From the NCBI GenBank assembly GCA_964035575.1, contig OZ037839.1, forward strand, positions 1,736,001 through 1,800,000: a stretch of 64,000 bases of DNA, written 5' to 3'. How positions within the stretch are numbered: the stretch's first letter is position 1; the number at the start of each line of letters is the position of its first letter. Positions 14,451-63,965 of the stretch are shown here, piece by piece. Position numbers and translations under genes: made by a program. The notes below the pieces were generated by a model. That model searched no databases and had not been told where the DNA came from. It worked only from the letters and a program-made list of their open reading frames with translations. Source of the DNA: Rhynchopus sp. YZ270_cl-10. Lineage: Eukaryota.

Positions 14451-16007
14451 ATGGAACTGTGTGTGCAGGGATATGATGATGAAACCAAATTCGTGATTGA
14501 GGTGGGTGAGAAGGACACAACGGAGACGATGCGGCAGAAGGTGGCGTCTGCAACAGGGTTGTGCGAAGACAGCTTCCGCATGGGCTTCGGAGGGAAGGAG
14601 GAAGGAGAGGACATCACAGAACTGAGTGCTGGAGACACAGTCGTGTTGACGAAAACTACTAAGTACGCATCTGTTGAGGAACTTCGTGCCTTGGGTGAGA
14701 CAGACATTTCCGAAGCGAGGTTGCGGACTGTGAAGGATCCTGAGGTGGCTTCTCTGCTTCTTCAGGCGGAGGTTGCGACTGAGATTCCGATGAACTTCTT
14801 AAAAAAAGAATCGTTTACGAGACTTGATCTCTCTGCTGTGTCTGGGGTGACGCGAATTGAGCAAGGCTTCCTCTACGAGTGTGCGTCGGTGGAAACGGTT
14901 GACTTGTCGGGATTGTGCAACGTTACGCACATCGGGCATGACTGTCTCTCTCGCTGCACATCGTTGACAAGCCTTGACGTGTCAGGGTTCACTGGTGTGA
15001 CGGTGATAGGGAACGCGTTCCTAGGAGGAAGTGGCGTCACAAAGCTTGACTTATCCGCGATGACGAGTGTGACGACGGTTGGTGACTACTTCCTCCACCG
15101 CTGCACGTCGCTGAAAAGGATTGACATCTCAGGATGGCGCAGAGTCACGCACATTGAGAATTACTTCCTCAAGCACTGCACCTCGTTGGCAACGATTGAT
15201 TTATCAGCTTTTTGCAGTGTCACGAAGATCGGCTCCGAGTTTCTCCGCGACTGCAAGTCGTTGACCACCATCAGCTTTTCAGGGATGACCAATGTGACGG
15301 ACATTGGGGACAGGTTTTGTGTGGACTGCACCTCGTTGGAAACGATTGACTTGACAGCACTGCACAGGGTTGTGAAGGTGGGTCACAACTTTCTTACGAG
15401 GTGCACCTCGCTGAGAAGTATCGACCTCTCAGCTTTTGGGAGTGCGACAGACGTTGGGTTCTACTTTCTTAGTAGCTGTTCATCACTGAAAATAGTTGAT
15501 TTATCAGTGTTGCGCAGCATCATGACAATTACGCCAAACTGGATGCAAGGGTGCTCCGCGTTGACAACAGCAGACTTCTCAGGACTGAGCAATGTTAAGA
15601 ACATTAGGACACATTTCCTGGATGAGTGCACATCCTTGACCACGCTGGACATGTCAGGTTTTGGCAGGGACACAATGATACACGACGACTTCCTGCTCAA
15701 CTGCAACGCACTCACAACAGTCGTCTTGCCAGGCAACATCGACATTGACGAGATCTCTCTCCCGAATGGAGACACCCACGCGAAGACCTTGCATGAACGT
15801 ATGCGTGGCATTTACGCAAGGTTTACGGAACAGTTCGCAGATGTGCGGATAGAAGCTTTTGAGGCAGTACGAACAGACGTGTCTGGAGATGCAAGACAAT
15901 GTATTGCATTGAAAGCAGGACAAGAAGGAGACGGTTTGATGCAAGCACACGAGGACAAGAAGGAGGGGGAAAAAGAGAATTTGGAGAGTTGGGGGCAGCA
16001 TAAATAA
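14451..16007 (+). CDS. UBL-LRR protein copy 1 (N-terminal ubiquitin-like domain + 13 BspA/TpLRR-like repeats)
   Basis: Intact ORF from MELCV; ~25-aa repeats CxSLxxIDLSxxxxVTxIGxxFL; N-terminus ...IEVGEKDTTETMRQKVASATGL...FGGKE resembles a ubiquitin fold. Confidence 0.85.
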   Translation: MELCVQGYDDETKFVIEVGEKDTTETMRQKVASATGLCEDSFRMGFGGKEEGEDITELSAGDTVVLTKTTKYASVEELRALGETDISEARLRTVKDPEVASLLLQAEVATEIPMNFLKKESFTRLDLSAVSGVTRIEQGFLYECASVETVDLSGLCNVTHIGHDCLSRCTSLTSLDVSGFTGVTVIGNAFLGGSGVTKLDLSAMTSVTTVGDYFLHRCTSLKRIDISGWRRVTHIENYFLKHCTSLATIDLSAFCSVTKIGSEFLRDCKSLTTISFSGMTNVTDIGDRFCVDCTSLETIDLTALHRVVKVGHNFLTRCTSLRSIDLSAFGSATDVGFYFLSSCSSLKIVDLSVLRSIMTITPNWMQGCSALTTADFSGLSNVKNIRTHFLDECTSLTTLDMSGFGRDTMIHDDFLLNCNALTTVVLPGNIDIDEISLPNGDTHAKTLHERMRGIYARFTEQFADVRIEAFEAVRTDVSGDARQCIALKAGQEGDGLMQAHEDKKEGEKENLESWGQHK

Positions 16008-16423
16008 AAGCAGGACAAGCTGGATGAACAGAGGGGTTTGGGGCCTTTGGGGAACAAAAGCCGAAACAATACAGAGGGTGGGTGGGGAGGGAGGGGAGGA
16101 AAGCATCATATGTGATGTGACAAAAAACAATGTGATTTTTTTTTTTTTTGATCCCAAAGAAGAACAAAACAAAGTCCGCGAGAGAAACTGCACAAAAGGC
16201 AATATTATGGAAACCACCCCACACTAGTTGCCACTTCCTCTTACTGCTGTCAAATCTCCAAAAGCACACCACCACACCTCAAAGGCAATTTCCTCTTTTC
16301 TCTTTACCACGAACGTTTCCACCTCTCTCTCATTGAAGTCACGTCTTGAGGGGCTTGCTCTCTCTTTGCTCTGTTGCTTGACATCCAAAGAGTCGTGCTT
16401 CTCTTGTTCTCTTTCCCCTTGCA

Positions 16424-17761
16424 ATGGAGGTCTTCATTGTGCACCCGCCCTGCAGTGTGGAGGTCGCTCTGACCGATACTGTGCTGCGACTGAAGCGCAA
16501 GGTGGAGAAGGTGAGCGGGGTGCACATTGAGGCACTGATCTTGGACGGCGAGGTGCTGTGCGATGAGGACATGTGTGCAGGGACGGGGATTGTGGAGGGA
16601 TGCGCGCTGGAGGTTGAGCTGCGCCTCGACCTGGATCAAATGCGGGGGGCGTGGCTGAACGTTGAGGACCCCACGCATGCACCAGAGGCGCTCTGGCTCG
16701 ATGAGGCGTTTGTGTACGCACGCCTTATGCGCACAGACTACCACCATGTCGGCACTGCAGTCCGCCTCTCGCGCGTCGCTAACAAGGCCACCTTGCTGCG
16801 CAAGGCCATCATTGCAAACCCTTTCTGCAGCAATGTACAGTGCTGGCCGGATGAGATGAAGGCGGACAAAGACACTGTGCTCGCATGCGTGAGTGCGGAT
16901 GCTTCTCTGTTGCAGTACTTCTCAGACACTATGCGCAACGACCCTGACATCGTCGAGACGGCACTGCAAAGCCCCAGATGGAACGTGGGATACCTTGCGT
17001 ACGTCAAGGTGCAGCGCATCGTTGAGAGGGAGGTGCAAAAGCAGCCCCGCCACCTATGCCACGCACCGTCCCTGCAGGGCAACCGCCGCGTCGTTCTCTC
17101 CCTTGTACGCAAGGATGCGGTCTGTTTGCAATACGCATCTGTGGCCATACAGTCCGACCGCTCTGTGCTCCTGCAGGCCATGGAAAGCGGGACCTGGAAG
17201 CGAGAACTTCTCTTCCGTGCAAAGCCTGATGTCACTGGGGATAAAAGGATCATGGCAACGCTTGTGGCTAAGGACGCACGCTATTTGGAGTATGCGACTG
17301 GGGCAGTGTTGGGGGACTTCGACATTGTGCTCGCTGCAGTGCAAAGCGGGACGTGGAGAGCCGGCGCACACCTGCGTCTGGTGTCGAAAGAGTTGCAGGC
17401 GAACCGCACCCTTGCGGCGCACTCCTTCGCTGTGGACAGCACAACACTGCAGTACACGCATGCGTCGATTCTTCAGGACGTGCCCTTTCTGCTGCAGTGC
17501 CTCGAGCGTTATGGGAACGTAGCAACAGTGCTGGAGCACGTACCAGATCGGCTGAAAGCAAACAAAGCGTTTATGTTGAAGTGCCTGCACATCGACACTC
17601 CAGCAACACTGCCCTACGTGCCCTCAAAGCTGCAGGCAGATGAAGAGTTCAGGGCCGCATCCGCTGTGCACAAACCGTGCAAAGTACGCACACCAAATCC
17701 TAAGCCTTTGGACCCAATGGACGCCTTCAGGGCACGGTTCAAAGATGCTGTATCTGCCTGA
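16424..17761 (+). CDS. UBL + DUF4116-like repeat protein (445 aa)
   Basis: N-terminus VEVALTDTVLRLKRKVEKVSG...LILDGEVLCDE is UBL-like; repeats such as DKDTVLACVSADASLLQYFSDTMRNDPDIV match the DUF4116 pattern. Confidence 0.8.
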   Translation: MEVFIVHPPCSVEVALTDTVLRLKRKVEKVSGVHIEALILDGEVLCDEDMCAGTGIVEGCALEVELRLDLDQMRGAWLNVEDPTHAPEALWLDEAFVYARLMRTDYHHVGTAVRLSRVANKATLLRKAIIANPFCSNVQCWPDEMKADKDTVLACVSADASLLQYFSDTMRNDPDIVETALQSPRWNVGYLAYVKVQRIVEREVQKQPRHLCHAPSLQGNRRVVLSLVRKDAVCLQYASVAIQSDRSVLLQAMESGTWKRELLFRAKPDVTGDKRIMATLVAKDARYLEYATGAVLGDFDIVLAAVQSGTWRAGAHLRLVSKELQANRTLAAHSFAVDSTTLQYTHASILQDVPFLLQCLERYGNVATVLEHVPDRLKANKAFMLKCLHIDTPATLPYVPSKLQADEEFRAASAVHKPCKVRTPNPKPLDPMDAFRARFKDAVSA

Positions 17762-18575: not shown

Positions 18576-20153
18576 ATGGAACTGTGTGTGCAGGGATATG
18601 ATGATGACACCAAATTCGTGATTGAGGTGGGTGAAAACGACACAACGGAGACGATGCGGCAGAAGGTGGCGTCTGCAACAGGGTTGTGCGAAGACAGCTT
18701 CCGCATGGGCTTCGGAGGGAAGGAGGAAGGAGAGGACATCACAGAACTGAGTGCTGGAGACACAGTCGTGTTGACGAAAACTACTAAGTACACATCTGTT
18801 GAAGCACTTCGTGCCTTGGGTGAGACAGACATTTCCGAAGCGAGGTTGTGGACTGTGACGGATCCTGAGGTGGCTTCTCTGCTTCTTCAGGCGGAGGTTG
18901 CGACTGAGATTCCGATGAACTTCTTAATCAAAGAATCATTTACGAGACTTGATCTCTCTGCTGTGTCTGGTGTGACGCGAATTAGGCAAGCCTTCCTCTA
19001 CGGGTGTGCATCGGTGGAAACCGTTGACTTGTCGGGATTGTGCAACGTTACGCACATCGGGCATGACTGTCTCTCTCGCTGCACATCGTTGACAAGCCTT
19101 GACGTGTCAGGGTTCACTGGTGTGACGGTGATAGGGAGCACGTTCCTCCAAGGAAGTGGCGTCACAGAGCTTGACTTATCCGCGATGACGAGTGTGACGA
19201 CGGTTGGTGACTACTTCCTCCACCGCTGCACGTCGCTGAAAAGGATTGACATCTCAGGATGGCGCAGAGTCACGCACATTGAGAATTACTTCCTCAGCAA
19301 CTGCACCTCGTTGGCAACTATTGATTTATCAGCTTTTTGCAGTGTCACGAAGATCGGCTCCGAGTTTCTCCTCAACTGCACGTCTTTGACCACCATCAGC
19401 TTTTCAGGGATGACGAATGTGACGGACATTGGGAACAGGTTTTGTGCGGACTGCACCTCGTTGGAAACGATTGACTTGACAGCACTGCACAGGGTTGTGA
19501 AGGTGGGTCACAACTTTCTTACGAGGTGCACCTCGCTGGGAAGTATCGACCTCTCAGCTTTCGGCAGTGTCGCAGCCATCGGGTCCGGGTTTATGATGCA
19601 GTGCTCATCATTGAAAACAGTTGATTTATCAGTGTTGCGCAGCATCATGATAATTATGCCAAACTGGATGGAAGGGTGCTCCGCGTTGACAACAGCAGAC
19701 TTATCAGGACTGAGCAATGTTAAGAACATTGCGACACATTTCCTGGATGAGTGCACATCCTTGACCACGCTGGACATGTCAGGTTTTGGCAGGGACACAA
19801 TGATATACGACGACTTCCCGCGCAACTGCAACGCACTCACAACAGTCGTCTTGCCAGGCAACATCGACATTCACGAGATGTCTCTCCCGAATGAAGCCCA
19901 AAAGAACCATGGCACTGGACTCACGAAGACCTTCGATGCATGTGTGCGTGACATTTACGCAAGGTTTACGGAACAGTTCGGAGGTGTGCGGACAGAAGAT
20001 CTGGTACGAACAGACGTGTCTGGAGATGTAAGACAATGTATTGCATTGAAAGCAGGACAAGAAGGAGAAGGTTTGATGCAAGCACAAGAGGACGAGGACA
20101 AGCAGGAACTGGACAAACAGGAGCATGACAAGCAAGGGCATTTGGAGGGTTAG
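18576..20153 (+). CDS. UBL-LRR protein copy 2
   Basis: Intact ORF colinear with copy 1; same leader and ATG context. Confidence 0.85.
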   Translation: MELCVQGYDDDTKFVIEVGENDTTETMRQKVASATGLCEDSFRMGFGGKEEGEDITELSAGDTVVLTKTTKYTSVEALRALGETDISEARLWTVTDPEVASLLLQAEVATEIPMNFLIKESFTRLDLSAVSGVTRIRQAFLYGCASVETVDLSGLCNVTHIGHDCLSRCTSLTSLDVSGFTGVTVIGSTFLQGSGVTELDLSAMTSVTTVGDYFLHRCTSLKRIDISGWRRVTHIENYFLSNCTSLATIDLSAFCSVTKIGSEFLLNCTSLTTISFSGMTNVTDIGNRFCADCTSLETIDLTALHRVVKVGHNFLTRCTSLGSIDLSAFGSVAAIGSGFMMQCSSLKTVDLSVLRSIMIIMPNWMEGCSALTTADLSGLSNVKNIATHFLDECTSLTTLDMSGFGRDTMIYDDFPRNCNALTTVVLPGNIDIHEMSLPNEAQKNHGTGLTKTFDACVRDIYARFTEQFGGVRTEDLVRTDVSGDVRQCIALKAGQEGEGLMQAQEDEDKQELDKQEHDKQGHLEG

Positions 20154-21264: not shown

Positions 21265-23820
21265 ATGGAACTGTGTGTGCAGGGATATGATGATGACACC
21301 AAATTCGTGATTGAGGTGGGTGAGAACGACACGACGGAGACGATGCGGCAGAAGGTGGCGTCTGCAACAGGGTTGTGCGAAGACAGCTTCTGCATGGGCT
21401 TCGGAGGGAAGGAGGAAGGAGAGGACATCACAGAACTGAGTGCTGGAGACACAGTCGTGTTGACGAAAACTACTAAGTCCACATCTGTTGAGGCACTTCG
21501 TGCCTTGGGTGAGACAGACATTTCCGAAGCGAGGTTGTGGACTGTGGAGGATCCTGAGGTGGCTTCTCTGCTTCTTCAGGCGGAGGTTGCGACTGTTATT
21601 CCGGACTGGTTCTTGCGCTTTGCATCGTTTACGAGACTTGATCTCTCTGCTGTGTCTGTTGTGACACGAATTGAGGACGGCTTCGTCGAAGGGTGTGCGT
21701 CGGTGGAAACCGTTGACTTGTCGGGATTGTGCAACGTTACGCACATCGGGGATGACTTTCTCGAGAGATGCACATCGTTGACAAGCCTTGACGTGTCAGG
21801 GTTCACTGGTGTGACGGTGATAGGGGAGTCCTTCCTCCAAGGAAGTGGCGTCACAAATCTTGACTTATCCGCGATGACGAGCGTGACGACGTTTGGTGAC
21901 TACTTCCTCTACAACTGCGAGTCGTTAGAAAGTCTTGACATCTCAGGATGGCGCAGAGTCACGCACATTGAGGACTACTTCCTCTGGAACTGCACCTCAT
22001 TGGCAACGATTGATTTGTCAGCTTTTTGCAGTGTCACGAAGATCGCCTCCGAATTTCTCTTCAACTGCTCGTCGTTGACCACCATCAGCTTTTCAGGGAT
22101 GACGAATGTGACGGAAATAGGGCACAGCTTCTGTGAGGACTGCACCTCGTTGGAAACGATTGACTTGACAGCACTGCACAGGGTTGTGAAGGTAGGTCAC
22201 AACTTTCTTACGAGGTGCACCTCGCTGGGAAGTATCGACCTCTCAGCTTTTAGCAGTGTCGCGGCCATTGGGTTCAACTTTCTTTTTCAGTGCTCATCAT
22301 TGAAAACAGTTGATTTATCATTGTTGCGCAGCATCACACGCATTGAGTACAGCTGGATGCAAGAGTGCTACGCGTTGACAACAGCAGACTTCTCAGGACT
22401 GAGTAATGTTAGGCAGATTGATGCATCTTTCCTGCAAGGGTGCACATCCTTGACTGCGCTGGACATGACAGGTATAGGCAGTGGCACAAGGATCGGCATG
22501 GACTTCCTGCTCAACTGCAACGCACTCACAACAGTCGTCTTGCCAGGCAACAGGGCAAGACAATGTATTGCATTGAAAGCAGGACAACAAAGAGAAGGGT
22601 TTGATGCAAGCACAAGAGGACGGGGACAAGCAGGAGGATTTGGAGGATTTGGTGCAGGGCAAACAGGAGCAACACAAACTGGAGGGTTTGGAGGGTTTGG
22701 TGCAGGGCAAACAGGAGCAACACAAGCAGGAGGGTTTGGAGGGTTTGGTGCAGGGCAAACAGGAGCAACACAAGCAGGAGGATTTGGAGGGTTTGGTGCA
22801 GGGCAAACGGGAGCAACGCAAGCAGGAGGATTTGGAGGGTTTGGTGCAGGGCAAACAGGAGCAACACAAGCAGGAGGAGTTGGAGGGTTTGGTACAGGAC
22901 AAACAGGAGCAACACAAGCAGGAGGATTTGGAGGGTTTGGTGCCGAGCTGAAGACGGAGTACCAGGTCAAGCTTGCTGAGTACGAGGCAAACAAGGGATC
23001 TGACGACGAGGACGGGGAGGAGGACGAAGGTCCCAAGAAGCGCAAGGCCAAGGAGGACCCCAACGCACCGAAGCGTCCTCTCACCGCCTTCTTCATCTTC
23101 ACCAACGAGCTGAAGGAGAAGCACCCGCACTGGAAGGTTGTTGACATCGTCAAGGAGGCGGGCAGACGTTGGATGGAGATGGACAACGATGACAAGACTG
23201 AGTACATCGAGAAGGCGCTTGATCTGAAGAAGGAGTACCAGGTAAAGCTCGCCGAGTACCTGGCAAATAAGGGGTCTGACGACGAGGATGAGGAGGAGGA
23301 GGTTGGACAAACAGGAGCAACACAAGAAGGAGGATTTGGAGGGTTTGGGGCAGGGCAAACAGGAGCAACACAAGCAGGGGGATTTGGAGGGTTTGGTGCA
23401 GGACAAACAGGAGCAACACAAGCAGGGGGATTTGGAGGGTTTGGTGCAGGACAAACAGGAGCAACACAAGCAGGGGATTTGGAGGGTTTGGGGCAGGACA
23501 AGCAGGAGCAACACAAGCAGGAGGATTTGGAGGGTTTGGTGCAGGACAAACAGGAGCAACACAAGCAGGAGGATTTGGAGGGTTTGGTGCAGGACAAACA
23601 GGAGCAACACAAGCAGGAGGGTTTGGAGGGTTTGGTACAGGACAAACAGGAGCAACACAAGCAGGAGGATTTGGAGGGTTTGGTGCAGGACAAACAGGAG
23701 CAACACAAGCAGGGGGATTTGGTGATTTGTGTGAAAAACGCTTTGGTGAAGATATTGAGCTTCATTTTTGGATACACCTGTGAGGACGTAAAATATTATT
23801 TGCCTTTTCCCAACGTATGA
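21265..23820 (+). CDS. UBL-LRR protein copy 3 with FG-repeat tail and captured HMG box
   Basis: UBL + 13 LRRs, then (GGFGGFGAGQTGATQA)n interrupted in frame by DPNAPKRPLTAFFIF...EAGRRW...EY (HMG-box motif). Confidence 0.8.
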   Translation: MELCVQGYDDDTKFVIEVGENDTTETMRQKVASATGLCEDSFCMGFGGKEEGEDITELSAGDTVVLTKTTKSTSVEALRALGETDISEARLWTVEDPEVASLLLQAEVATVIPDWFLRFASFTRLDLSAVSVVTRIEDGFVEGCASVETVDLSGLCNVTHIGDDFLERCTSLTSLDVSGFTGVTVIGESFLQGSGVTNLDLSAMTSVTTFGDYFLYNCESLESLDISGWRRVTHIEDYFLWNCTSLATIDLSAFCSVTKIASEFLFNCSSLTTISFSGMTNVTEIGHSFCEDCTSLETIDLTALHRVVKVGHNFLTRCTSLGSIDLSAFSSVAAIGFNFLFQCSSLKTVDLSLLRSITRIEYSWMQECYALTTADFSGLSNVRQIDASFLQGCTSLTALDMTGIGSGTRIGMDFLLNCNALTTVVLPGNRARQCIALKAGQQREGFDASTRGRGQAGGFGGFGAGQTGATQTGGFGGFGAGQTGATQAGGFGGFGAGQTGATQAGGFGGFGAGQTGATQAGGFGGFGAGQTGATQAGGVGGFGTGQTGATQAGGFGGFGAELKTEYQVKLAEYEANKGSDDEDGEEDEGPKKRKAKEDPNAPKRPLTAFFIFTNELKEKHPHWKVVDIVKEAGRRWMEMDNDDKTEYIEKALDLKKEYQVKLAEYLANKGSDDEDEEEEVGQTGATQEGGFGGFGAGQTGATQAGGFGGFGAGQTGATQAGGFGGFGAGQTGATQAGDLEGLGQDKQEQHKQEDLEGLVQDKQEQHKQEDLEGLVQDKQEQHKQEGLEGLVQDKQEQHKQEDLEGLVQDKQEQHKQGDLVICVKNALVKILSFIFGYTCEDVKYYLPFPNV
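22626..23722 (+). repeat. 48-bp coding minisatellite interrupted by the HMG-box segment (22944-23304)
   Basis: Unit GGAGCAACACAAGCAGGAGGATTTGGAGGGTTTGGTGCAGGACAAACA with variants. Confidence 0.9.
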
Positions 23821-27809: not shown

Positions 27810-28071
27810 GAGAAAAAAATTTCAAAAAAAAAAAAAATTTTTTTTTTTTTTCGACAACTACTTTTTCAAGCCTGGAAAAAAAATTTTTTTTTTTGGGCCT
27901 GACCTTGGGTCCTTGTGCACCGAAAAATTCAAAAAACGGCAAAATTTTGATGTTTTGAGCATCTGTGGGTGAATCATATGCACTGCTACAGTGGCCTATT
28001 ATTGGGTGTTTTCCTTAGCAAATTCCTTCACAAAACTCATTTTTGATTTTGGCAAAGGCAAATTTCAGGCC

Positions 28072-28817: not shown

Positions 28818-28850
<33 letters not shown>

Positions 28851-30343: not shown

Positions 30344-30658
30344 CCCGACACGCCAACGTCGTCACCCCGTTCCGCGCTCTGACGGACCCAGCGGTTGTGG
30401 CTGTGATGGAGTTTGTCGCGTCCGATCTCTTTCTGGTGTGTGCGAAGATGCTGCGCCCAACTGCGAGCAGTTCGATGGGCTTAGAGCGTGCAGTAGAGAT
30501 TGTGTGCCAGAGGAAGCTGAATCTCGGTGACGACGTGCATCTGTCTTGTGACAAGAAGATGCTGTTGAAGCGCTTTGCGCTCGTGAATTGGTGTCAGGCT
30601 GTTGTGACGCGCGATCGAAGAGAAGTGCAGGAAGTCGGCCACTTTTCCGCAAGATGTT

Positions 30659-51399: not shown

Positions 51400-52422
51400 A
51401 TGGAACTCGTCGTCAAAGGTTTTGCTGAAGAAGACTACGTGATTGAAGTGGGTGAGAAGGACACAACGGAGACGATGCGGAAGAAGGTGGCGTCTGCAAC
51501 AGGGTTGTGCGAAGACAGCTTCCGCATGGGCTTCGGAGGGAAGGAGGAAGGAGAGGACATCACAGAACTGAGTGCTGGAGACACAGTCGTGTTGACGAAG
51601 AAGTCGAAGAAGTACGAAGCCATTGCAGCGCTTCATGCGTTGGGTGAGACGGACTTTACAGAAGTGCGGTTGACGACTGTGAGAGATCCTGGGGTGGCTT
51701 CTCTGCTTCTTCAGGCGGAGGTTGCGACTGTTATTCCGAATGGGTTTTTGGTAGAAGTAAACACATTAACGACACTTGATCTTTCTGCTGCGTCAGGTGT
51801 GACGCACATCGGGAACGACTTTCTTCGCCATTCCACGAGATTAACAAAGGTCGACCTCTCTGGGCTGGGCAATGTACGGCGGATAGGGAACGGCTTCCTT
51901 TATTGGTGCCCAAAGTTGGACACAGTTGATCTTTCCGGATTCGGAAGTGTCGCACGGATTGGCAACTCATTCTTGTGCAGCTGCGCGAGGCTGACGAGGC
52001 TGGACCTTTCCGCATTGCGGGGGCTGACGCACATAGGGCACGGTTTTCTCATGATGTGCAGTCGGCTTGCTGTGCTGGTGTTGCCGAGGATGTGTGGAGA
52101 GGCGCACGTTGGTGCACTTTTCCTGAACAACTGCACAGCATTGACAGCTTTGAATGCATCAGGCTTGGCGAACGTCACGCAGATTGAGAGCAAATTCATC
52201 AACTGTGCAGCGCTGCGGACGCTGGATTTGTCCGGATTGGCAAACGTGACGCAGGTCGGGGCGGATTTTCTGTCCAACTGCGATGCGCTGACAGAACTAG
52301 ACCTGTCAGGGTCCAGCAGGGCGCTTTCGCAAGCAGTGCCGTTCCAACTGCGCATGAGATGCTCCTTTGCTCGGCACAGCTTCGGAAGAACGTTTCTGAA
52401 GATGGTAGGCCAAAAAGGCTGA
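51400..52422 (+). CDS. UBL-LRR protein copy 4 (divergent, shorter LRR array)
   Basis: 340-aa ORF; UBL core nearly identical to the other copies, LRRs distinct, no 48-bp tail. Confidence 0.85.
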   Translation: MELVVKGFAEEDYVIEVGEKDTTETMRKKVASATGLCEDSFRMGFGGKEEGEDITELSAGDTVVLTKKSKKYEAIAALHALGETDFTEVRLTTVRDPGVASLLLQAEVATVIPNGFLVEVNTLTTLDLSAASGVTHIGNDFLRHSTRLTKVDLSGLGNVRRIGNGFLYWCPKLDTVDLSGFGSVARIGNSFLCSCARLTRLDLSALRGLTHIGHGFLMMCSRLAVLVLPRMCGEAHVGALFLNNCTALTALNASGLANVTQIESKFINCAALRTLDLSGLANVTQVGADFLSNCDALTELDLSGSSRALSQAVPFQLRMRCSFARHSFGRTFLKMVGQKG

Positions 52423-52894: not shown

Positions 52895-55800
52895 ATGGAG
52901 GTGTACCTACGCTATGCGCTGACTGCAGAGGAGGTGGGTGTTGAGGTGGGTGAGTTTGATACCATCGGGCAGTTCCGTGAGAACGCTGCGCAGGAGTTTG
53001 GGTGTGACACGGAGCATGTGGAGCTGCATATGGACGGGGTCAGCATTGGCGACGATGAGGAGCTTGTGTCTGCTGCAACCTCCTTGACGCATGCGTCCGT
53101 TGTCGACGTTGTGGTCTCCATGGATGTCTTCGTGGAACACATCCGCAACGGAACACGATGCTACACAGACCTCCCAGACAGCGTGCAAAGAGACATCCCC
53201 TGTGCCCTCGCTGCCCTGCAGTCCAACAACAACAGAGCAGAGTTCCGAGACCTGCCCCCCGAAGTGCAAACCCACCCAACCATTGTTGAGCACCTCGCAT
53301 CCTCACCAGACATCTTCGAAACTGCGCACCCATCCGCATGGCACGACGAAGACTTCCGTTCGGCAGTGCTCACCGCAACGAATGGCTACTGTCTATCGTG
53401 GGATTGCTGTGAGGACCTCAGGTCGGATCGTGATACGGTGTTGGGGTGTGTGCAGCGCAACGGGGACATGCTTGAGTACGCGAGTAGCGAGCTGAAGAAG
53501 TGCCCGGTGATCGTGCTGGCCAGTGTGCAGTGCTGCGCCTCGGCCATCCAGTATGCTGCAGAGGAGGTGCGTGCGGACCAAGACATCTTCACTGCCGCAG
53601 TGGTAGGTGGTGTCGGGGAGCCCACATGGCTGCCAGAAGCACTTCGTGCAGACCGTGGGCTTGCCATGCGATGTGTGCGCATGCGGCCCAAGGCCCTTCA
53701 TGTCTTCTCTGACGAACTGAGAGGTGACCAATTCGTGGTGGCCGCAGCAGGATCGCTGGAGTATGCGTCTGAAGACCTGAAGAAGGACAAAGAGTTTGCC
53801 ATCTCGTGTGTGGGGAAAAACTATCAAAACCTTGAGCACGTGGATGAGTCCTTGCAGTCGGACAGAGACGTTGTGATGGCGGCGATAGCACACTACAAGG
53901 GTGCCTTCCGCTTCGCCTGCAACAGTATCCGCGACGATCCTGAGCTTGCTCTGCAGTGCAGTACTGAATGCACGTACGTTGCAGAGTATTACGGCGAGAC
54001 GCTGTGCCAGGACAAAGGTTTCATTATGTCTGCCATACGTGAAAATGCAGGAGTCTTTCGTAACTTGAAGGGTCAGTGGCGAGATGATGAGGATGTGGCG
54101 AAGTTGGCTATCGAGGCGTCGGCTGGCAACTTCCGTAGTTGCAGCGCTACATTGCGGGACAAACATGCGTTTGTGCTGTTCGCAGTGCAGAAGGGTGCAA
54201 ACCTGCGTTATGCTTCTGCCGCACTGCACAGCGACACAGAGCTGTGCCGTGCAGCAGCAGCAGCAGCGCCGCACAACGACCTTGAGTTTGCGCCACCGGC
54301 ACTGCGTGACGACTTCGAGTTTGTGAAGAAGGCTGTGTCGACGCAGGGCACTGACCTGCAGTACGCATCAGCCGCACTGCAGGATACTTATGACATTGTG
54401 TTGGCCGCTGTGCAGCACTCTAGCCAAGGGTTTTTGTACGCGAGCCCACGTTTGCGGAAATGCGAGACGCTTGCGAGAGAGGCGTTGGGGCATATGCATT
54501 GGCGTAACAGGGATGGTCGTTCTACGTACATGAGTTGTCTCGAGTTCCTGGGGACGTATCTGCTTGACGACAAGGCGTTTATTCTCTCTCTTGCGAAGCC
54601 GGCTGTGTTCCCGTACGTCTCGAAGCGGCTGCAGGCAGACCGCGACGTTGTTCTGAGCTGTGTGCACCATGAGGGGTCGTACCTTCACTACGCCTCTTCC
54701 GACCTGCGCGACGACAGGGCCGTGGTCGAGGCTGCTGTCACGTCCACAACACAAAACAACAGTGCCCTGACGTCCGCATCCATTCGGCTTCAGCGTGACC
54801 ACAGCCTTGTCCTCCTTGCGGTCACGCACTGCGGCCATTCCCTGCAGTATGCCTCCAGCGATCTGCAGAACAACATCGACATTGTGCGTGCTGCCGTGGC
54901 ACAGGAGTGGGACTCCCTCAAGTACGCAAACAAAACACTGCTCCACACGACGGACATTGTGCACAGTGTTCTTCCTGAACACCCGCGGGCACTTAAGTAT
55001 GCAAGCGCCGAGGTGCGGAATGATGTGTCTATTGTGGGACCTCTTGCCAAGAAGGATGTTCGGTGTCTGTCGTACGCTGGGCCTGCAGTGCTGTCCGACC
55101 GTGCGTTCATCTTGTCTGCAGTGCAGCAGAACCCAGTCGCCATGCAGTACGCATCGCAGGAGTTGCGTGACGACCCCGACATTGCCGCAGCCCTTATCGA
55201 GCACCCTGCGGGAGACCAGGTACCGCCCCTCAGCCCGGAGCTCCTTGGGAACAAGGACTTCATGATGAAGGCAATCGCGAAGCATCAAACCTGGTTCCTG
55301 AACGCAAGCGTGCGTCTGCAGAACGACCCTGGCTTCGTCTTCCTGGTTGTGAGGAAAGAAGAGCCGCACACAGTTGCATACATCATACGGCACGCAGGGG
55401 CTGGGGTCAGAGCAGACTACAACACGATGCTCGAGGTTGTGACGAAGTGCAGTGGATCCCTGGAGCATGCAAGTAGGGCATTGAGGAACAACCTTGACAT
55501 CGTGACGGCAGCAGTTCTCAAGGATCCACACAGCTTTGAGCATGCCAGTGCAGCACTGCGCAACTGCAAGCGTGTCGCGATGCTTGCAATGCGTGGGTGG
55601 GCTTATAACCTGAGGCACGCAAGTGAGACGCTGCAGAACGACCCAGAGGTTGTGCTGTGCTGCATTGCTCAGGATGAGGACACCATTCAGTATGCAGGGC
55701 CGAGCAAAGACAGCTACCGCTTTGCCGTGAAGGCTGTGCGCAAGCAGTGGTCTGTGTTCGAGAGTCTTTCACCAACTCTGCGGACAAACCCGAACTTCAT

Positions 55801-56482
55801 TCTCGCATGCATCAATGACGATAACCAATACAGCTGGGAGGATGAGCTGTGTCCCTCTGCCTGGGCACACACGGCTTTGGTGATGAGATTGCTTCCTGCC
55901 TTGGGTGGGAGGACGGTCATGACGCAGGCTGACGAAAAGGTGAGGCGGAAGTTTAAGGTAGCGCTTGCCTGTGTGGACGACGACATGAGCACCCTGGAGC
56001 TGGTACCGCTGCAGCTGCGTGAGAGCAAAGACTTCATCATGGCATGCCTGGACCTAGAGGGAGCCAAGGACAGGCTGGACGTCTCTCTCATTGGCGACAG
56101 ATTGTGGTGCGATGCCGACGTCGTGACGAAGGCCATTGCCACGGCCCCCACCGCACTGCGCAGAAGCATCCTGGAGATACACAAACACAAGACTCTCTTT
56201 GCGAACCGTGCCTTTATGTTGGAGTGTGTGCGCCGCGATGCGAGCAACCTGCAGTATGCATCAGAGGCCCTGCAGGACGACGTCCACGTTGTCCTCGAGG
56301 CGCTAAGAAGCAAGGTCTCTGCTGCCGCCTTTGCACGTCCGTCCGTCCTGCGCCACCCACGTGTGCGTGCACTTCTCTGGGGGCACAAAGCAGTCCTTGC
56401 AGGCTGGCTCGCCTTCATCATCTGCAACAGGTTCGCAAGGCCGCTCACAGGTGGAGGCCTCTACGGCCCGCTGGGAATGTGA
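52895..56482 (+). CDS. UBL + long DUF4116-repeat protein (~1195 aa)
   Basis: MEVYLR...VEVGEFDTIGQFRENAAQEFG...LHMDGVSIGDD is UBL-like; many LxYASxxLxxDxxVVLxAV repeats; hydrophobic C-terminal stretch. Confidence 0.85.
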   Translation: MEVYLRYALTAEEVGVEVGEFDTIGQFRENAAQEFGCDTEHVELHMDGVSIGDDEELVSAATSLTHASVVDVVVSMDVFVEHIRNGTRCYTDLPDSVQRDIPCALAALQSNNNRAEFRDLPPEVQTHPTIVEHLASSPDIFETAHPSAWHDEDFRSAVLTATNGYCLSWDCCEDLRSDRDTVLGCVQRNGDMLEYASSELKKCPVIVLASVQCCASAIQYAAEEVRADQDIFTAAVVGGVGEPTWLPEALRADRGLAMRCVRMRPKALHVFSDELRGDQFVVAAAGSLEYASEDLKKDKEFAISCVGKNYQNLEHVDESLQSDRDVVMAAIAHYKGAFRFACNSIRDDPELALQCSTECTYVAEYYGETLCQDKGFIMSAIRENAGVFRNLKGQWRDDEDVAKLAIEASAGNFRSCSATLRDKHAFVLFAVQKGANLRYASAALHSDTELCRAAAAAAPHNDLEFAPPALRDDFEFVKKAVSTQGTDLQYASAALQDTYDIVLAAVQHSSQGFLYASPRLRKCETLAREALGHMHWRNRDGRSTYMSCLEFLGTYLLDDKAFILSLAKPAVFPYVSKRLQADRDVVLSCVHHEGSYLHYASSDLRDDRAVVEAAVTSTTQNNSALTSASIRLQRDHSLVLLAVTHCGHSLQYASSDLQNNIDIVRAAVAQEWDSLKYANKTLLHTTDIVHSVLPEHPRALKYASAEVRNDVSIVGPLAKKDVRCLSYAGPAVLSDRAFILSAVQQNPVAMQYASQELRDDPDIAAALIEHPAGDQVPPLSPELLGNKDFMMKAIAKHQTWFLNASVRLQNDPGFVFLVVRKEEPHTVAYIIRHAGAGVRADYNTMLEVVTKCSGSLEHASRALRNNLDIVTAAVLKDPHSFEHASAALRNCKRVAMLAMRGWAYNLRHASETLQNDPEVVLCCIAQDEDTIQYAGPSKDSYRFAVKAVRKQWSVFESLSPTLRTNPNFILACINDDNQYSWEDELCPSAWAHTALVMRLLPALGGRTVMTQADEKVRRKFKVALACVDDDMSTLELVPLQLRESKDFIMACLDLEGAKDRLDVSLIGDRLWCDADVVTKAIATAPTALRRSILEIHKHKTLFANRAFMLECVRRDASNLQYASEALQDDVHVVLEALRSKVSAAAFARPSVLRHPRVRALLWGHKAVLAGWLAFIICNRFARPLTGGGLYGPLGM

Positions 56483-56799
56483 TATGATATGTATTTCGGG
56501 AAAGTCATTACGTTTCCTTCTACAATCTGCTGTTGCAGGCGACAGTAGGCGGGTACTTTGGTGCTTTCATCCGGATGGCTGGCATCGTACGTGGGTCAGT
56601 CGGAGGTGCCTGCATCAACAACTACAGTTTATTTCCCCCAACCAGACCCTACATCACAACGCAGACTCATTTGATTTGCGTCTCGAATAGTGTTTCCCCC
56701 CCGAGACAATTCCCCTGGTGACGAAACACCTATTTAATTTGCGTTGTTTTGTGTAAACCATTTTGTCATTGTACAAAGAGGGGTGACGGAGCAGAGATA

Positions 56800-57798: not shown

Positions 57799-57949
57799 TA
57801 CACCTACGCTAACCCTTTTCTGAGCTCCCCCTGTTTGTGTTGTTGTTGTTGTTTTTGTTGCTTTTTTTAGTTTGCACCAATTCACTCTTGGAAATGGCTA
57901 CTAAACCTGCTCTCGCCCTAATGTGATGAGGTGCTTTAACCTTTGTTTT

Positions 57950-60900
57950 ATGCTATCACAACCACCGGTGCCAATTGCATCTGTTCGTCAGTGTGCTTGC
58001 AGTCGGTGGTTGTCTGTTTTCTGATGGAGTGCGAAACATGTTTCATGACCAAAAACCCGAACCTGTTCAGACCAGATCTTCTAAAAAAACAGAATTCTTC
58101 CTACATATGTACCTCCCTTTTTAGGCCTTCTCTGCAACACATATCTGCTGCTCAAATACCCCCCTCCCATCGCGCCTATCTTGCTGACGTCGCGTCCACA
58201 CACTGCTACCCACTATGATGAAGACACTGAGGTGCAGCACCGCATGACGCACTTCATTGGTGCAAATGCGAACCCAAAGCCGTGTTGTGCAGCTTCATCG
58301 CAATGCCAATAAGCACAGAAGTGAGTCGCATTCACCGTTTTGCTGCCTTTTGTCAGAACAATCAACGTCAACACATCCTCTCATTTCCTCTTTAATTCCT
58401 ACCCCACCCCGTTGTAATAATAAGACAACATTGTGCAAAACAGAGCAACACTTCACTCGAAACAATGGAACTGTGTGTGCAGGGATATGATGATGACACC
58501 AAATACGTGATTGAGGTGGGTGAGAACGACACAACGGAGACGATGCGGCAGAAGGTGGCGTCTGCAACAGGGTTGTGCGAAGACAGCTTCCGCATGGGCT
58601 TCGGAGGGAAGGAGGAAGGAGAGGACATCACAGAACTGAGTGCTGGAGACACAGTCGTGTTGACGAAAACTACTAAGTACGCATCTGTTGAGGAACTTCG
58701 TGCCTTGGGTGAGACAGACATTTCCGAAGCGAGGTTGGCGACTGTGGACGATCCTGAGGTGGCTTCTCTGCTTCTTCAGGCGGAGGTTGCGACTGTTCTT
58801 CCTCGCCTGTTCTTGTCGGAAGCATCGTTTACGAGACTTGATCTCTCTGCTGTGTCTGGGGTGACGCGAATTGAGCACAACTTCCTCTTCAACTGTGCGT
58901 CGGTGGAAACGGTTGACTTGTCGGGATTGTGCAACGTTACGCACATCAAACAACTATTTCTCTCTCGCTGCCCATCGTTGACAAGCCTTGACGTGTCAGG
59001 GTTCACGGGTGTGAAGGTGATAGGGAACTGGTTCCTCCAAGGAAGTGGCGTCACAAAGCTTGACTTATCCGCGATGACGAGTGTGAAGACGGTTGGTGCT
59101 TGCTTCCTCTCCGACTGCGAGTCGTTAGAAAGCATTGACATCTCAGGATGGCGCAGAGTCACGCACATTCAGGACTACTTCCTCAAGAACTGCACCTCGT
59201 TGGCAAGCATTGATGTATCAGCTTTTTGCAGTGTCACGAAGATCGACTCCCGCTTTCTCATCAACTGCTCGTCGTTGACCACCATCAGCTTTTCAGGGAT
59301 GACCAATGTGACGGACATTGGGCACAGCTTTTGTAAGGACTGCACCTCGTTGGAAACGATTGACTTATCAGCACTGCACAGGGTTGTGAAGGTGGGTTAC
59401 GACTTTCTAATGAACTGCACCTCGCTGGGAAGTATCGACCTTTCAGCTTTTGGGAGTGCGACAGACATCGGTCACTGCTTTCTTGTTCAGTGCTCATCAT
59501 TGAAAGCAGTTGATTTATCAGTGTTGCGCAGCATCACACACATTGAGCAACACTGGATGCGAGGGTGCTCCGCGTTGACAACAGCAGACTTATCAGGACT
59601 GAGCAATGTTACGCAGATTGGTTCACTGTTCCTGCAAGGGTGCACATCCTTGACTACGCTTGACATGTCAGGTATAGGCTGTGACACAATGATCCAATAC
59701 ATATCTCACCCGCATCACTTCCTGCTCAACTGCAACGCACTCACAACAGTCGTCTTGCCAGGCAATATCGACATGCACGAGATATCAAAAGAGGACCGTA
59801 GCATGTTGCAGTGCACCGATGCACCCTTCCATGTGTGTGTGCGTGTCATGTACGCAAGGTTTGCTGAACAGTACGCAGATGTGCGGGTAGAACGCTTTAA
59901 TGCAGCACGACAAGACGTGTCTGGAGATGCAAGACAATGTATTGCATTGAAAGCAGGACAAGAAGGAGAAGGTTTGATGCAAGCACAAGAGGACGAGGGC
60001 AAACAGGAGCAACAAAAACAGGAGGATTTGGATGGTTTGGGGCAGGACAAACAGGAGCAACACAAGCAGGAGGGTTAGCAGGACAAACTGGAGCCGAACA
60101 AACAGGTGAAAATATCGAATTTCATTCTTAGATACACCTCTGTGAGCTCTTGGGGAATCCGGGATTTTTAGCGTTTTTAGCGAAAATAAGGATCTACCCT
60201 GTTCATAACTTTTTTTTCTCCGCCGCCCGCCGGATTTGGGGGGTGGTCAACACGCCGGATGGATGCGATCAACAAACAACAAACAACGAATAAATAAAGA
60301 AGGGGGGTGTATTTCATTTTCTAATCCGGGGCGGGTTGGAGTAGAGCCACATTTGTTTAGGTTTACCTTGGGCCACGAGCACCCTGTACACTGTCTGAGG
60401 CAGTGAGGTGGATGGAGTTTTCGTCTGTGCTAATTGGTTATGCGTTAACACAGGCTGTGAATGCCTCTAGTTTTTTTTGTAGTCGATCCGCGAGTGATTG
60501 AAACAGGGATAATAACAGGTGCACCGAAAAAATCGGTGGAGTCTGCTCGTGTGTGAGCGATACGGACGGTGCCGAAATATCGGCGGACACGTACACGGGT
60601 GTGAGTTGCGTGGTTTTGTGTGTGTTACTGGCAGTGCCGGAATATCGGCAGGGACCGAACGCTCGGTCGTGCACGCCTAGGTGGAAAGGCTGCGCTGGTG
60701 GGGTAGTCGACTGTAACGGTTGAAAGGAGGGGGGGGTTATGAAATCATCAGCAAAGCTGAGGTGGCCAAGATAGCGATCTTGTTTTTGGGTGTGTGTGTT
60801 TCACCACAACCTCTCCTTTTTGTCTTTATTGTTTTTATTGCATTTTTATTGTTTGTGGGGGTGGGGGAAAAACATAAAAGGAACAGTCGGGTGCGGTTTC

Positions 60901-61681
60901 AATTTTTTACTTCCAGCAGCTTTTGGTATACATTTGAACTACATATGCAGTACATAACATTGAAGAATCAACGATGTGATACAGGATATGGGTCAGTGAT
61001 TACACAGAATCGACACCTTTGGTGTCTCAACAAAAACGAATTAATTAAGAAAGAGACTTTGAAGCTAGCAAAAAGAAATGCCTCGATAGTGAATGTTTTG
61101 TGAAGGCTTTGTGAATTTATGCGAACCACAAGTGAATTTTCCCGAACAAGAAATACCCAAATCACCCCATTTTACATCAAAGCCTTGTCAAGGAGTGGAG
61201 CCCATACTTCGCCCACAATGCTATCACAACCACCGGTGCCGATTGCATCTGTTCGTCAGTGTGCTTGCAGTCGGTGGTTGTCTGTTTTCTAATGGAGTGC
61301 GAAACATGTTTCATGACCAAAAACCCGAACCTGTTCAGACCAGATCTTCAAAAAAAAAAACAGAATTCTTCCTACATATGTACCTCCCTTTTTAGGCCTT
61401 CTCTGCAACACATATCTGCTGCTCAAATACCCCCCTCCCATCGCGCCTATCTTGCTGACGTCGCGTCCACACACTGCTACCCACTATGATGAAGACACTG
61501 AGGTGCAGCACCGCATGACGCACTTCGTTGGTGCAAATGCGAACCCAAAGCCGTGTTGTGCAGCTTCATCGCAATGCCAATAAGCACAGAAGTGAGTCGC
61601 ATTCATCGTTTTGCTGCCTTTTGTCAGAACAATCAACGTCAACACATCCTCTCATTTCGTCCTTAATTCCTACCCCACCCC
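57950..61681 (+). repeat. ~460-bp upstream block duplicated with LRR copies 5 and 6 (57950-58410, 61219-61681)
   Basis: Near-identical from ATGCTATCACAACCACCGGTGCC to TTAATTCCTACCCCACCCC. Confidence 0.9.
58465..60078 (+). CDS. UBL-LRR protein copy 5
   Basis: Intact 537-aa ORF colinear with the other copies. Confidence 0.85.
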   Translation: MELCVQGYDDDTKYVIEVGENDTTETMRQKVASATGLCEDSFRMGFGGKEEGEDITELSAGDTVVLTKTTKYASVEELRALGETDISEARLATVDDPEVASLLLQAEVATVLPRLFLSEASFTRLDLSAVSGVTRIEHNFLFNCASVETVDLSGLCNVTHIKQLFLSRCPSLTSLDVSGFTGVKVIGNWFLQGSGVTKLDLSAMTSVKTVGACFLSDCESLESIDISGWRRVTHIQDYFLKNCTSLASIDVSAFCSVTKIDSRFLINCSSLTTISFSGMTNVTDIGHSFCKDCTSLETIDLSALHRVVKVGYDFLMNCTSLGSIDLSAFGSATDIGHCFLVQCSSLKAVDLSVLRSITHIEQHWMRGCSALTTADLSGLSNVTQIGSLFLQGCTSLTTLDMSGIGCDTMIQYISHPHHFLLNCNALTTVVLPGNIDMHEISKEDRSMLQCTDAPFHVCVRVMYARFAEQYADVRVERFNAARQDVSGDARQCIALKAGQEGEGLMQAQEDEGKQEQQKQEDLDGLGQDKQEQHKQEG

Positions 61682-61794
61682 CATAGTTGAGAGAATATGA
61701 CTTGGGGTGGTTATTCTTGTTTTGTTGCATCTTGCCTCCCTCCTCCTCCTTCTCAACACTTACCCCAAAACAGAGCAACACTTCACTCGAAACA

Positions 61795-63965
61795 ATGGAA
61801 CTGTGTGTGCAGGGATATGATGATGAAACCAAATTCGTGATTGAGGTGGGTGAGAAGGACACAACGGAGACGATGCGGCAGAAGGTGGCGTCTGCAACAG
61901 GGTTGTGCGAAGACAGCTTCCACATGGGCTTCGGAGGGAAGGAGGAAGGAGAGGACATCACAGAACTGAGTGCTGGAGACACAGTCGTGTTGACGAAGTC
62001 GACGTACCAATATGTTAATAAACTTCGTGCCTTGGGTGAGACAGACATTTCCGAAGCGAGGTTGGCGACTGGGCGTACGGGATTAGTATCTTTTTTTCGA
62101 GAGAACCCAAGAGCGGCCAGGTCCTGGACAAGTACGTTGTGCTTTTAGACCTACAAACTGTCTGGGGTGGTGGGACCTCGGGGCGAAGGGTGCTTCCCGG
62201 GACCCCAATATCCTACCACAAGGAGCTCGAGTCGTGCATGGAATGCAGGGTACTCTGAGCCGATTACTTCCACAAAACTCCCAGATCCCAAGACCTCCAC
62301 GGGGGGCAGGCCTCCACGGAAACCCGCGACCGCCGACACCTTAGCTCCGTACTGCCTCTGTCTGTAACCTGCCGGTCCCCCACCTACCTACGCTTTTTGT
62401 GGTGTCTTTTTACGACGGTGGACCAAGGGGCTTTGCAGTGCAGTCAACGCCGACGGAGCGAGACTCGATTGTGACCGGGTGAAAAGGGAACCTTAGCCAG
62501 CGCTAACCAGCGGCAGTTTTGACTCAGGGAGGAGTTTCTCACCGCAGACTGGCGACACACCCCCACTTTTTCGGGGTGGCTGCATTCCTCTTCGGAACGG
62601 GGTGTTCCATCCTATTTTTAAAAACGTTTATCCGAAGCGAGGTTGGCGACTGTGAAGGATCCTGAGGTGGCTTCTCTGCTTCTTCAGGCGGAGGTTGCGA
62701 CTGTTATTCCGTTCGACTTCTTGCGCGAAGCATCGTTTACGAGACTTGATCTCTCTGCTGTGTCTGGTGTGACGCGAATTGAGTACAACTTCCTCCAAGG
62801 GTGTACGTCGGTGGAAACAGTTGACTTGTCGGGATTGTGCAACGTTACGCACATTGGGGACAAGTTTCTCCATCGGTGCCCATCGTTGAGAAGCCTTGAC
62901 GTGTCAGGGTTCACTGCTGTGACGGTGATAGGGAACTCGTTCCTAGGAGGAAGTGGCGTCACAGAGCTTGACTTATCCGCGATGACGAGTGTGACGACGG
63001 TTGGTGGGCTCTTCCTCCAGAACTGCAGGTCGTTGGAAAGTCTTGACATCTCAGGATGGCGCAGAGTCACGCACATTGCGAACGACTTTCTCACGGACTG
63101 CACCTCGTTGGCAAGCATTGATTTGTCAGCTTTTTGCAGTGTCACGAAGATCGGCTCCGAATTTCTCCGCAACTGCACGTCGTTGACCACCATCAGCTTT
63201 TCAGGGATGACCAATGTGACGGACATTGGTAACAACTTTTGTAAGGACTGCACCTCGTTGGAAACCATTGACTTGACAGCATTGCACAGGGTTGTGAAGG
63301 TGGGGTACGGCTTTCTTACGAGGTGCACCTCGCTGGGAAGTATCGACCTTTCAGCTTTTGGGAGTGCGACAGACGTTGGGAACAGCTTTCTTTTTGACTG
63401 CTCATCATTGAAAACAGTTGATTTATCAGTGTTGCGCAGCATCACACGCATTGACGTATACTGGATGCAAGGGTGCTCCGCGTTGACAACAGCAGACTTA
63501 TCAGGACTGAGCAATGTTAAGAACATTAATGCACAGTTCCTGCAAGGGTGCACATCCTTGACCACGCTGGACATGTCAAGTATAGGCTGTGACACGATGA
63601 TCCAGCACTACTTCCTGCGCAACTGCAACGCACTCACAACAGTCGTCTTGCCAGGCAACATCGACATTGACGAGATGTCTCTCCCGAATGAAGCCCAAGA
63701 GAACAATGGCTATGGCGTCACGAAGACCTTCGATGCATGTGTGCGTGACATTTACGCAAGTTTTACGGAACAGTTCGGAGGTGTGCGGACAGAAGATCTG
63801 GTACGAACAGACGTGTCTGGAGATGCAAGACAATGTATTTCATTGAAAGCAGGACAAGAAGGAGAAGGTTTGATGCAAGCACAAGAGGACGAGGACAAGC
63901 AGGAACTGGACAAACAGGAGCATGACAAGCAAGGGCATTTGGAGTGCCGGAGACACGCAGAGTGA
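61795..63965 (+). CDS. UBL-LRR protein copy 6, interrupted by an insertion (pseudogene, or spliced using intron 62061-62641)
   Basis: 5' part 61795-62070 and 3' part 62643-63965 are both open and rejoin as EARLATVKDPEV. Confidence 0.7.
62072..62630 (-). mobile_element. 559-bp non-coding insertion with 21-22-bp TSD (non-LTR/SINE-like)
   Basis: TCCGAAGCGAGGTTGGCGACT(G) at 62050-62071 and 62631-62652; no TIR or poly(A); strand assigned only relative to the 46804 copy. Confidence 0.85.

Follow-up and report, generated by a model that had tools for sequence, protein, structure and literature searches.

In this work, we examined a window of 64,000 nt (the whole stretch of DNA analysed, from contig OZ037839.1 of the diplonemid Rhynchopus sp. 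YZ270_cl-10) and found that it carries six genes of one family, all on the + strand, which start at positions 14451, 18576, 21265, 51400, 58465 and 61795 (copies 1 to 6). Each encodes an N-terminal ubiquitin-like domain (UBL), followed by a three-helix cap and by leucine-rich repeats (LRRs) of the BspA/TpLRR type, 25 residues long and marked by a Cys ladder. Twelve turns are present in copies 1, 2, 3, 5 and 6. Copies 1, 2 and 5 are intact. Copy 1 (14451..16007, 518 aa) runs from ATG to TAA with no internal stop, and is composed of the UBL (about 14451-14654), the helical cap (14655-14813), 12 BspA-type turns (14814-15737) and a tail; it matched LRR_5 in Pfam (E=3e-31) and, below the gathering threshold, ubiquitin (E=4e-4). 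Copy 2 (18576..20153, 525 aa) matches the database protein P0001, and copy 5 spans 58465..60078 (537 aa). Copy 4 (51400..52422, 340 aa), matching P0052, is a shorter and divergent member with 50% identity to copy 1.

The first-pass annotation of this DNA had compared copies 1, 2, 3, 5 and 6, and two of these call for correction: copy 3 (21265..23820, 851 aa) has lost most of its C-terminal cap by an in-frame deletion, and copy 6 (61795..63965) is split in its cap region by an insert of 559 bp. The tail of copy 3 contains an in-frame HMG box (23068..23259, + strand; Pfam HMG_box E=4e-14, residues 602-665) between two arrays of a 48-bp repeat (22626-22943 and 23305-23722). Along this tail (22626-23722) the 48-bp repeat is read in two frames, as nucleoporin-like GGFGGFG before the HMG box and as QEDLEGL after it. 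Either an integrated domain or a junk capture could explain the HMG cassette.

The insert of copy 6 (62072..62630) is non-coding, its longest stop-free stretch being 85 codons, and is bordered by a target-site duplication of 22 bp (62050-62071 and 62631-62652). Both parts of the gene retain the family reading frame, and read-through meets a stop at 62146. The insert was also seen with other flanks in contigs of three sequencing runs (X4, X6, X9), and is thus a dispersed mobile element. Contigs of X9, presumably an RNA run, also cover the UBL but with many differences, and were not taken as a sign of transcription. An inverted fragment of one of its ends (59 bp, 93%) lies at 46803-46861. Also, the duplication includes AG|GT, so that the element plus one duplication would form a possible GT-AG intron of 581 nt (62061-62641). 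Exact splicing could in principle represent an introner-like tolerance of insertion; no splice-type joint of the insert was found among the 15 read joints listed out of 37.

Upstream of the genes we observed a conserved polypyrimidine tract followed by AG (14371..14450, + strand, for copy 1), common to copies 1, 2, 3 and 6, where 27 of the 30 nt are pyrimidines (against 24 for copy 5 and 15 for copy 4). It is probably a trans-splice acceptor, a role assumed from euglenozoan biology. A simple hydropathy scan revealed no hydrophobic N-terminus in the six copies, in agreement with the earlier statement that no signal peptide is evident.

The repeat class was supported by Pfam in all six copies, with LRR_5 scores of 45.7-109.3 bits (gathering cut-off 27.7). 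The AlphaFold model of copy 1 gave a mean predicted local distance difference test score (pLDDT) of 87.4, with values above 90 over most repeats, and a predicted template modelling score (pTM) of 0.79; its UBL is modelled with the beta-grasp strand pattern and one helix. The best structural match of the model was the bacterial BspA-type protein 4fs7 (Z 28.4, root-mean-square deviation (rmsd) 3.9, 339 aligned), the top six matches were BspA-type or PcpA chains (Z 22.4-28.4), and the TpLRR structure 6mlx was matched with Z 19.5 (rmsd 3.0, 198 aligned). The predicted fold is a BspA/TpLRR solenoid. According to the DSSP assignment of the model, LxxLxL forms a first strand of each turn, and a second, short one comes immediately before the residues which vary between copies (see below); these residues would lie between the second strand and the Cys ladder, in an identical register on every turn.

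The first-pass annotation had quoted ten variable motifs from repeats 2 and 10, and all of them are present exactly in copies 1, 2, 3, 5 and 6: EQGFLYE, RQAFLYG, EDGFVEG, EHNFLFN and EYNFLQG in repeat 2; GFYFLSS, GSGFMMQ, GFNFLFQ, GHCFLVQ and GNSFLFD in repeat 10. Over the five copies, the three x positions after I in I-x-x-x-F-L-x-x-C vary in 7, 11 and 12 of the 12 turns, and the two x positions before C in 12 and 8, while among the scaffold sites F varies in 1/12 turns, C in 0/12 and the D of LDLS in 0/13. The pairwise nonsynonymous divergence (pN) is 0.40 at the five x positions (65 codons) vs 0.046 at the other 363 codons, and the synonymous divergence (pS) is 0.22 vs 0.087. Thus, the scaffold DNA, earlier called nearly invariant, is conserved without being literally so. 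Likewise, variability had been placed in the I-x-x-x-F-L-x-x-C repeats; it does concern the five x positions, but residues 92 and 95 of the cap turn, which precedes the first repeat, vary as well. The same contrast appears among 15 close paralogues, in which the x positions differ in 58-79% of pairs vs 5% in the UBL. Their turn number changes between 7, 9, 11, 12 and 14, with junctions in register. Ser, Asn, Asp, Gly and Tyr make up 60% of the variable residues, a mix which we regard as paratope-like.

Codon models (GY94, purpose-written rather than PAML, with naive empirical Bayes) were fitted to the 428 gap-free codons of copies 1, 2, 3, 5 and 6, copy 4 and the tails being excluded and copy 6 being read across its insert. 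The likelihood ratio test (LRT) of M1a against M2a gave 170.9, with an omega (dN/dS) of 8.5 on 17% of sites; the values were 170.6 for M7/M8, 169.5 for M8a/M8, and 177-205 under three other topologies. Among the 36 sites with a posterior above 0.95, 29 fell at the five x positions, which represent 65 of the 428 codons, 3 were adjacent to them and 4 were in the cap. When classes of sites were fitted alone, omega reached 3.5 at the five x positions and 7.9 in the cap, vs 0.77 at the exposed positions of LxxLxL and 0.20 in the core, where purifying selection was detected (LRT 25). With a shared synonymous rate, the five x positions gave 3.6, 8.2, 8.5, 11.9 and 3.8. To limit circularity, we also used an a priori class of six positions with an entropy of at least 3 bits, defined from 610 repeats of 106 distant paralogues, though the pattern in the window was already known by then. 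Its omega was 4.65 (dN 1.26, dS 0.27, LRT 25), vs 0.41 at the other LRR positions. These fixed repeat positions therefore evolve at four to five times the rate of silent sites. The diversifying selection proposed in the first-pass annotation is supported at fixed positions of the LRR turns, dN/dS at the variable sites being well above 1 by either definition.

It had also been proposed that equivalent positions stack into one surface. The regular solenoid and the single register agree with this proposal, and the repeat register and the DSSP assignment, rather than coordinates, lead us to infer that the variable residues form one exposed strip. However, this strip would not be on the LxxLxL strand, whose exposed residues have an omega of only 0.77, and the textbook picture of a variable concave face is therefore not directly transferable.

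A neutral origin of the pattern had to be weighed, in which exposed sites are simply unconstrained while gene conversion and multi-base mutations inflate dN/dS. Signs of both processes are seen in these genes. Allowing double and triple changes within a codon (multi-hit model) raised the M1a likelihood by 74 log units, reduced the LRT to 60.5 and its omega to 6.0, and gave an omega of 3.9 for the a priori class. A short conversion tract was found at residues 330-334, where copies 2 and 3 are grouped together against the usual grouping of copies 1 and 2, and like splits are clustered along the alignment (14/59, p=0.04). In neutral simulations with strong recombination, in which a new tree and depth were drawn every 13 codons, 44 runs gave M1a/M2a LRTs between 6.9 and 63.4. 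The nominal chi-square thus sets too low a bar to be relied on, though the observed 170.9 exceeds every run; the multi-hit LRT of 60.5, obtained under a different model, is within this neutral range. Nevertheless, in 243 neutral simulations combining multi-hit changes with free recombination, no run attained the class omega of 4.65 (maximum 1.79), and two runs attained the multi-hit value of 3.9. The dN of this class also stands far above its dS, and exposure alone does not account for it, as shown by the low omega of the exposed strand positions. We therefore consider the neutral explanation very improbable and already largely refuted.

Synonymous differences are unevenly distributed. Near the variable patch they amount to 21 in 63.9 sites (0.33), vs 17 in 98.9 (0.17) elsewhere in the turn (p=0.047), and they are lowest in the UBL and cap (4 in 67.3 sites). 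This raised synonymous divergence beside the patch indicates that patchy conversion contributes to the pattern, and fits a scaffold that is homogenised while old diversity is retained at the patch. The regions upstream of copies 5 and 6 (57950-58410 and 61218-61681) are 98% identical over 464 bp and their LRRs only 85%, which appears to be a further sign of uneven homogenisation.

The raised synonymous divergence would also be compatible with a targeted mutator that writes the variable codons, either by adenine mutagenesis as in diversity-generating retroelements (DGRs) or by templated micro-conversion from a cassette. Moreover, at the five x positions, 222 of the 429 codon pairs that differ carry two or three base changes, and the second codon position contains A in 38 of 43 variable columns. 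However, the first codon positions are free of such a bias (A 60, G 72, C 62, T 41) and A occurs in only 12 of 35 variable columns at third positions. A self-comparison of the window disclosed no invariant template copy, and neither its open reading frames (ORFs) nor Pfam indicated a reverse transcriptase gene adjoining the copies. We rejected a DGR-type process because of the missing adenine bias at first and third positions, and in view of the missing template and reverse transcriptase in the window; of all the explanations considered, a targeted mutator of either kind is the one to which we give least credence.

At the other end of the protein, the UBL is recognized by Pfam ubiquitin, in the five copies scanned with it, with E 3e-4 to 3e-3, below the gathering threshold. 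In copies 1, 2, 3, 5 and 6 its omega is 0.45, not significantly below 1 (LRT 1.7). With UBL values of 0.2-0.45 and 4.65-5.1 for the variable class, the proteins combine a conserved docking domain with a positively selected binding domain. Four residues (D22, R28, A34, F42) are invariant in 118/118 UBL-bearing relatives, and K30, A32, E39 and D40 are kept in 117/118; this conservation suggests that these residues either form a surface for a fixed partner or pack against the cap. No relative (0/118) has a di-glycine after the last UBL strand, and therefore the domain is not a conjugated modifier. The residue aligned with Ile44 of ubiquitin is Gly45; at this position, 76 relatives have Gly and 31 have Ser (107/118), which argues against a proteasome shuttle of the Rad23 type; direct shuttling by this UBL is thus doubtful. 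Taken with the invariant helix face, the Gly or Ser at this position points to a UBL which is probably a dedicated docking box. The constant UBL end of the earlier description is therefore conserved as claimed, but it lacks the Ile44 equivalent and the di-glycine, and its role as an effector end is putative.

A search with copy 1 returned 590 proteins at E<=0.001. Among the 120 of them that were listed, 118 carry the same UBL, so that the large protist family previously suggested was recovered with at least 118 paralogues, which probably come from one assembly. The two listed matches without UBL are an unnamed JGI protein and a Holosporales LRR protein (P0067, 37% identity), which has the repeats only. 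The N-terminal module alone had 183 matches in a set of 50%-cluster representatives, with many polyubiquitins among these matches, and a quick, unfinished tree search on 121 columns of this module shows only that subfamilies exist. No named diplonemid protein was among the 120 matches listed, and the family may therefore be a narrow expansion. A gene adjoining the family (11061-11951) had eight matches, and its five named ones are all from diplonemids: Rhynchopus euleeides (57% identity), Diplonema japonicum (50%), Lacrimia lanifica (46%), D. papillatum (44%) and Flectonema neradi (40%). For copy 1, the ESM Atlas returned only leads below 0.9, including clusters which join ubiquitin with DUF285 repeats. 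Plasmid BspA proteins reached only 30-37% identity, and no relative was found in viral contigs. One metagenome match (L001) was set aside as a chance match within a bacterial chemotaxis operon.

Some relatives present additional domains. Six of them (P0195, P0198, P0207, P0273, P0274 and P0275) begin with a pair of B-box-like domains, from which a long linker leads to the family module; the zf-B_box cut-off of 24.1 was passed by P0207, P0274 and P0275 (24.5-24.6), the three others being below. No RING was found in these six up to E 1, and P0273 keeps the B-boxes and the LRRs and lacks the UBL. A CaaX-like end is present in 26/118 relatives and in none of the window copies. A recurrent junction is seen in P0136, P0182 and P0185, where the family UBL is joined to other sequences at nearly one point, as its last strand ends; the fusion partners are an OTU-bearing ORF, a reverse transcriptase and an unrelated repeat domain. 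In P0136 and P0182, a retrotransposon seems to have inserted directly behind the UBL. Among Pfam matches up to E 0.1, the six copies showed no F-box, and NB-ARC, NACHT and ROC-COR were missing both from them and from the matches listed for 57 representatives. By the features tested, the family does not appear to belong to the F-box, NLR (nucleotide-binding LRR), ROCO, TRIM, proteasome shuttle or DGR systems.

The evolutionary pattern itself is known from other lineages; the architecture, the variable face and the host were not found in the literature searched. Similar families of BspA-like or TpLRR proteins comprise 911 genes in Trichomonas vaginalis and are also present in Entamoeba (PMC2843621). 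They share with the diplonemid family the LRR_5 repeat class and fold, the massive clustered expansion in a protist and, in some Entamoeba members, the CAAX ends, but they are presented there as surface proteins of mucosal parasites, in a main text from which the word 'ubiquitin' is absent. The family described here differs from them by the N-terminal UBL (118 of the 120 listed members), the 25-aa repeats with Cys ladder, the marine euglenozoan host, and the site-specific positive selection. In brown algae, ROCO LRR proteins are candidate immune receptors with selected sites on the concave beta-sheet, one exon per repeat and a ROC-COR effector (PMC11378527). The resemblance lies in intracellular LRR arrays outside plants and animals, in few selected positions per repeat and in variable repeat number. 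Unlike them, our family has intronless genes, a UBL as partner domain and no variability on the LxxLxL strand; its selected sites come after the second short strand, which also separates it from the NLRs. Unequal crossing over has also shaped other large and lineage-specific repertoires of LRR genes, namely the 90-bp-exon genes of Tetrahymena, most of which are reported to be under purifying selection (PMC6564038), and the FNIP/FGxxFN families, whose most variable residues are off the strand (PMC9525666). These belong to other repeat classes, and no UBL fusion is mentioned in the passages of the two papers which describe them. Description of a UBL-BspA family was not found in the literature searched, most subscription journals being outside it, and the same search yielded no recognition or defence gene family in diplonemids; neither BspA nor LRR_5 is mentioned in the main texts of PMC10161547 and PMC7052976, nor in the supplements of PMC10161547, as far as the consulted portions of these sources go.

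A close parallel in evolutionary terms is provided by the nematode F-box adaptors of ubiquitin ligases, reportedly described by Thomas in 2006. In that family, a constant N-terminal docking module is under purifying selection and the C-terminal binding domain is positively selected (PMC8120010). The tandem expansion and the proposed defence role are further likenesses, but here the docking module is a UBL instead of an F-box, and a link to SCF or any other ligase would come by analogy only. In TRIM proteins, a RING, a B-box and a coiled coil are followed by a variable C-terminal domain. The six B-box relatives resemble them in layout, with paired B-box-like domains and a long linker preceding the variable recognition domain, and differ by the absence of RING; the window copies have no B-box.

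On balance, we lean towards the hypothesis that these proteins are cytosolic adaptors in defence. We propose that the family evolves by gene birth and death in its diplonemid host, with positive selection acting on a single stacked strip of residues along a BspA-type LRR rod; the variable strip would grip foreign proteins, and the constant UBL end would bring all members to the same docking partner in the host. By comparison with the nematode F-box adaptors, this partner may be part of the ubiquitin-proteasome system. The N-termini without hydrophobic segment and the CaaX-like ends of some relatives suggest a location in the cytosol or at the inner membrane, and an arms race with intracellular bacteria or viruses would be the probable driver. 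Diplonemids rank among the most abundant protists of the sea and harbour intracellular bacteria. Their endosymbionts encode secretion systems, effectors and LRR proteins (bioRxiv 10.1101/719211). The gene set likely encodes intracellular recognition proteins which would pass foreign targets to a shared host partner. Several of our results weigh against this hypothesis: the neutral LRTs that strong recombination alone can produce and the multi-hit LRT that falls among them, the conversion beside the patch, the UBL omega not significantly below 1, the missing di-glycine and Ile44 equivalent, the lack of RING and the loss of UBL in P0273, the apparent retrotransposon insertions in P0136 and P0182, and the broken state of one of the six copies in the window.

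Some of these features, notably the UBL without Ile44 equivalent, suit a different function, that of a sensor or scaffold for prey, mates or kin at the inner membrane face, in which the UBL would be a signalling dock of the RA/PB1 kind with no link to degradation. The selection data apply equally to such a function, CaaX-like ends occur in 26/118 relatives, P0207 has a very weak RA-like match (E=0.18), and CAAX-bearing BspA proteins of Entamoeba are surface-associated (PMC2843621). However, none of the six window copies shows a signal-like N-terminus, so that external cues would have to reach the proteins by some other route, and the B-box fusions favour scaffolds of the ubiquitin type. We thus regard a signalling role as rather unlikely.

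Still less probable, in our opinion, is a role in policing selfish elements, with a variable strip that binds transposon proteins in an intragenomic arms race. The window does contain the dispersed mobile element as well as a fragment of a DDE_3 transposase, along with many repeats, and retroelement ORFs are fused to family UBLs. Yet insertions into genes are expected in any repeat-rich region and are no evidence of binding, and DNA- or RNA-binding modules are absent save for the single HMG capture in copy 3.

The adaptor hypothesis can be extended, in a more speculative way, to a cell-autonomous immunity of diplonemids. Several hundred germline-encoded, antibody-like BspA-LRR binders, which would use a non-canonical LRR face and a dedicated UBL docking box and in part also bear TRIM-like B-boxes or a prenyl anchor, would capture, for destruction, proteins that come from bacterial endosymbionts or giant viruses. 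Such a system would constitute an independently evolved euglenozoan counterpart of F-box and TRIM restriction, its repeat type possibly derived from bacteria. We advance this scenario as a tentative one. Whatever its fate, the quantified arms-race signature, the constant UBL as a bait and the mapped strip make recognition of intruders inside a free-living protist cell testable. Also, the BspA/TpLRR scaffold diversifies here on another part of the turn than the LRRs of plants, algae and lampreys, and this off-strand diversification would be useful for reading the 900 BspA genes of Trichomonas and for binder design.

Two neighbouring genes on the + strand, interspersed among the LRR genes, encode other combinations of the same kind. 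The gene at 16424..17761 presents a different UBL (Pfam ubiquitin E=1.5e-5, 21% identity to the UBL of copy 1) followed by DUF4116 repeats (E=7e-27). The gene at 52895..56482 has 16 DUF4116 repeats (E=6e-132) after a UBL-like N-terminus, which is 25% identical to the UBL of copy 1 and has no Pfam ubiquitin match. A UBL plus repeats thus appears as a recurring plan of this genome.

The rest of the window is rich in repeats. The DDE_3 transposase fragment (57055-57552) is located between inverted repeats of 240 bp (56798-57037 and 57562-57800), and the whole (56798-57800) is probably a Tc1/mariner-type element. Two dispersed fragments of eukaryotic small subunit (SSU) rRNA were detected with Rfam (27960-28805 and 35441-36243). 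Very long perfect microsatellites, for example AAC x411, TACTGGG x101 and ATGAC x112, occur at 7274-7979, 10437-10663, 12604-13837, 24942-25283, 32861-33153 and 41166-41723; the one at 32861 encodes a long poly-Gln within an ORF of 1233 codons (30608-34309). Another ORF, of 732 codons (47860-50058), has no Pfam match and no relative but itself. Finally, a WD40 gene is present at 43141-44313, and its product, with a cysteine-rich C-terminus, is possibly lipid-anchored.

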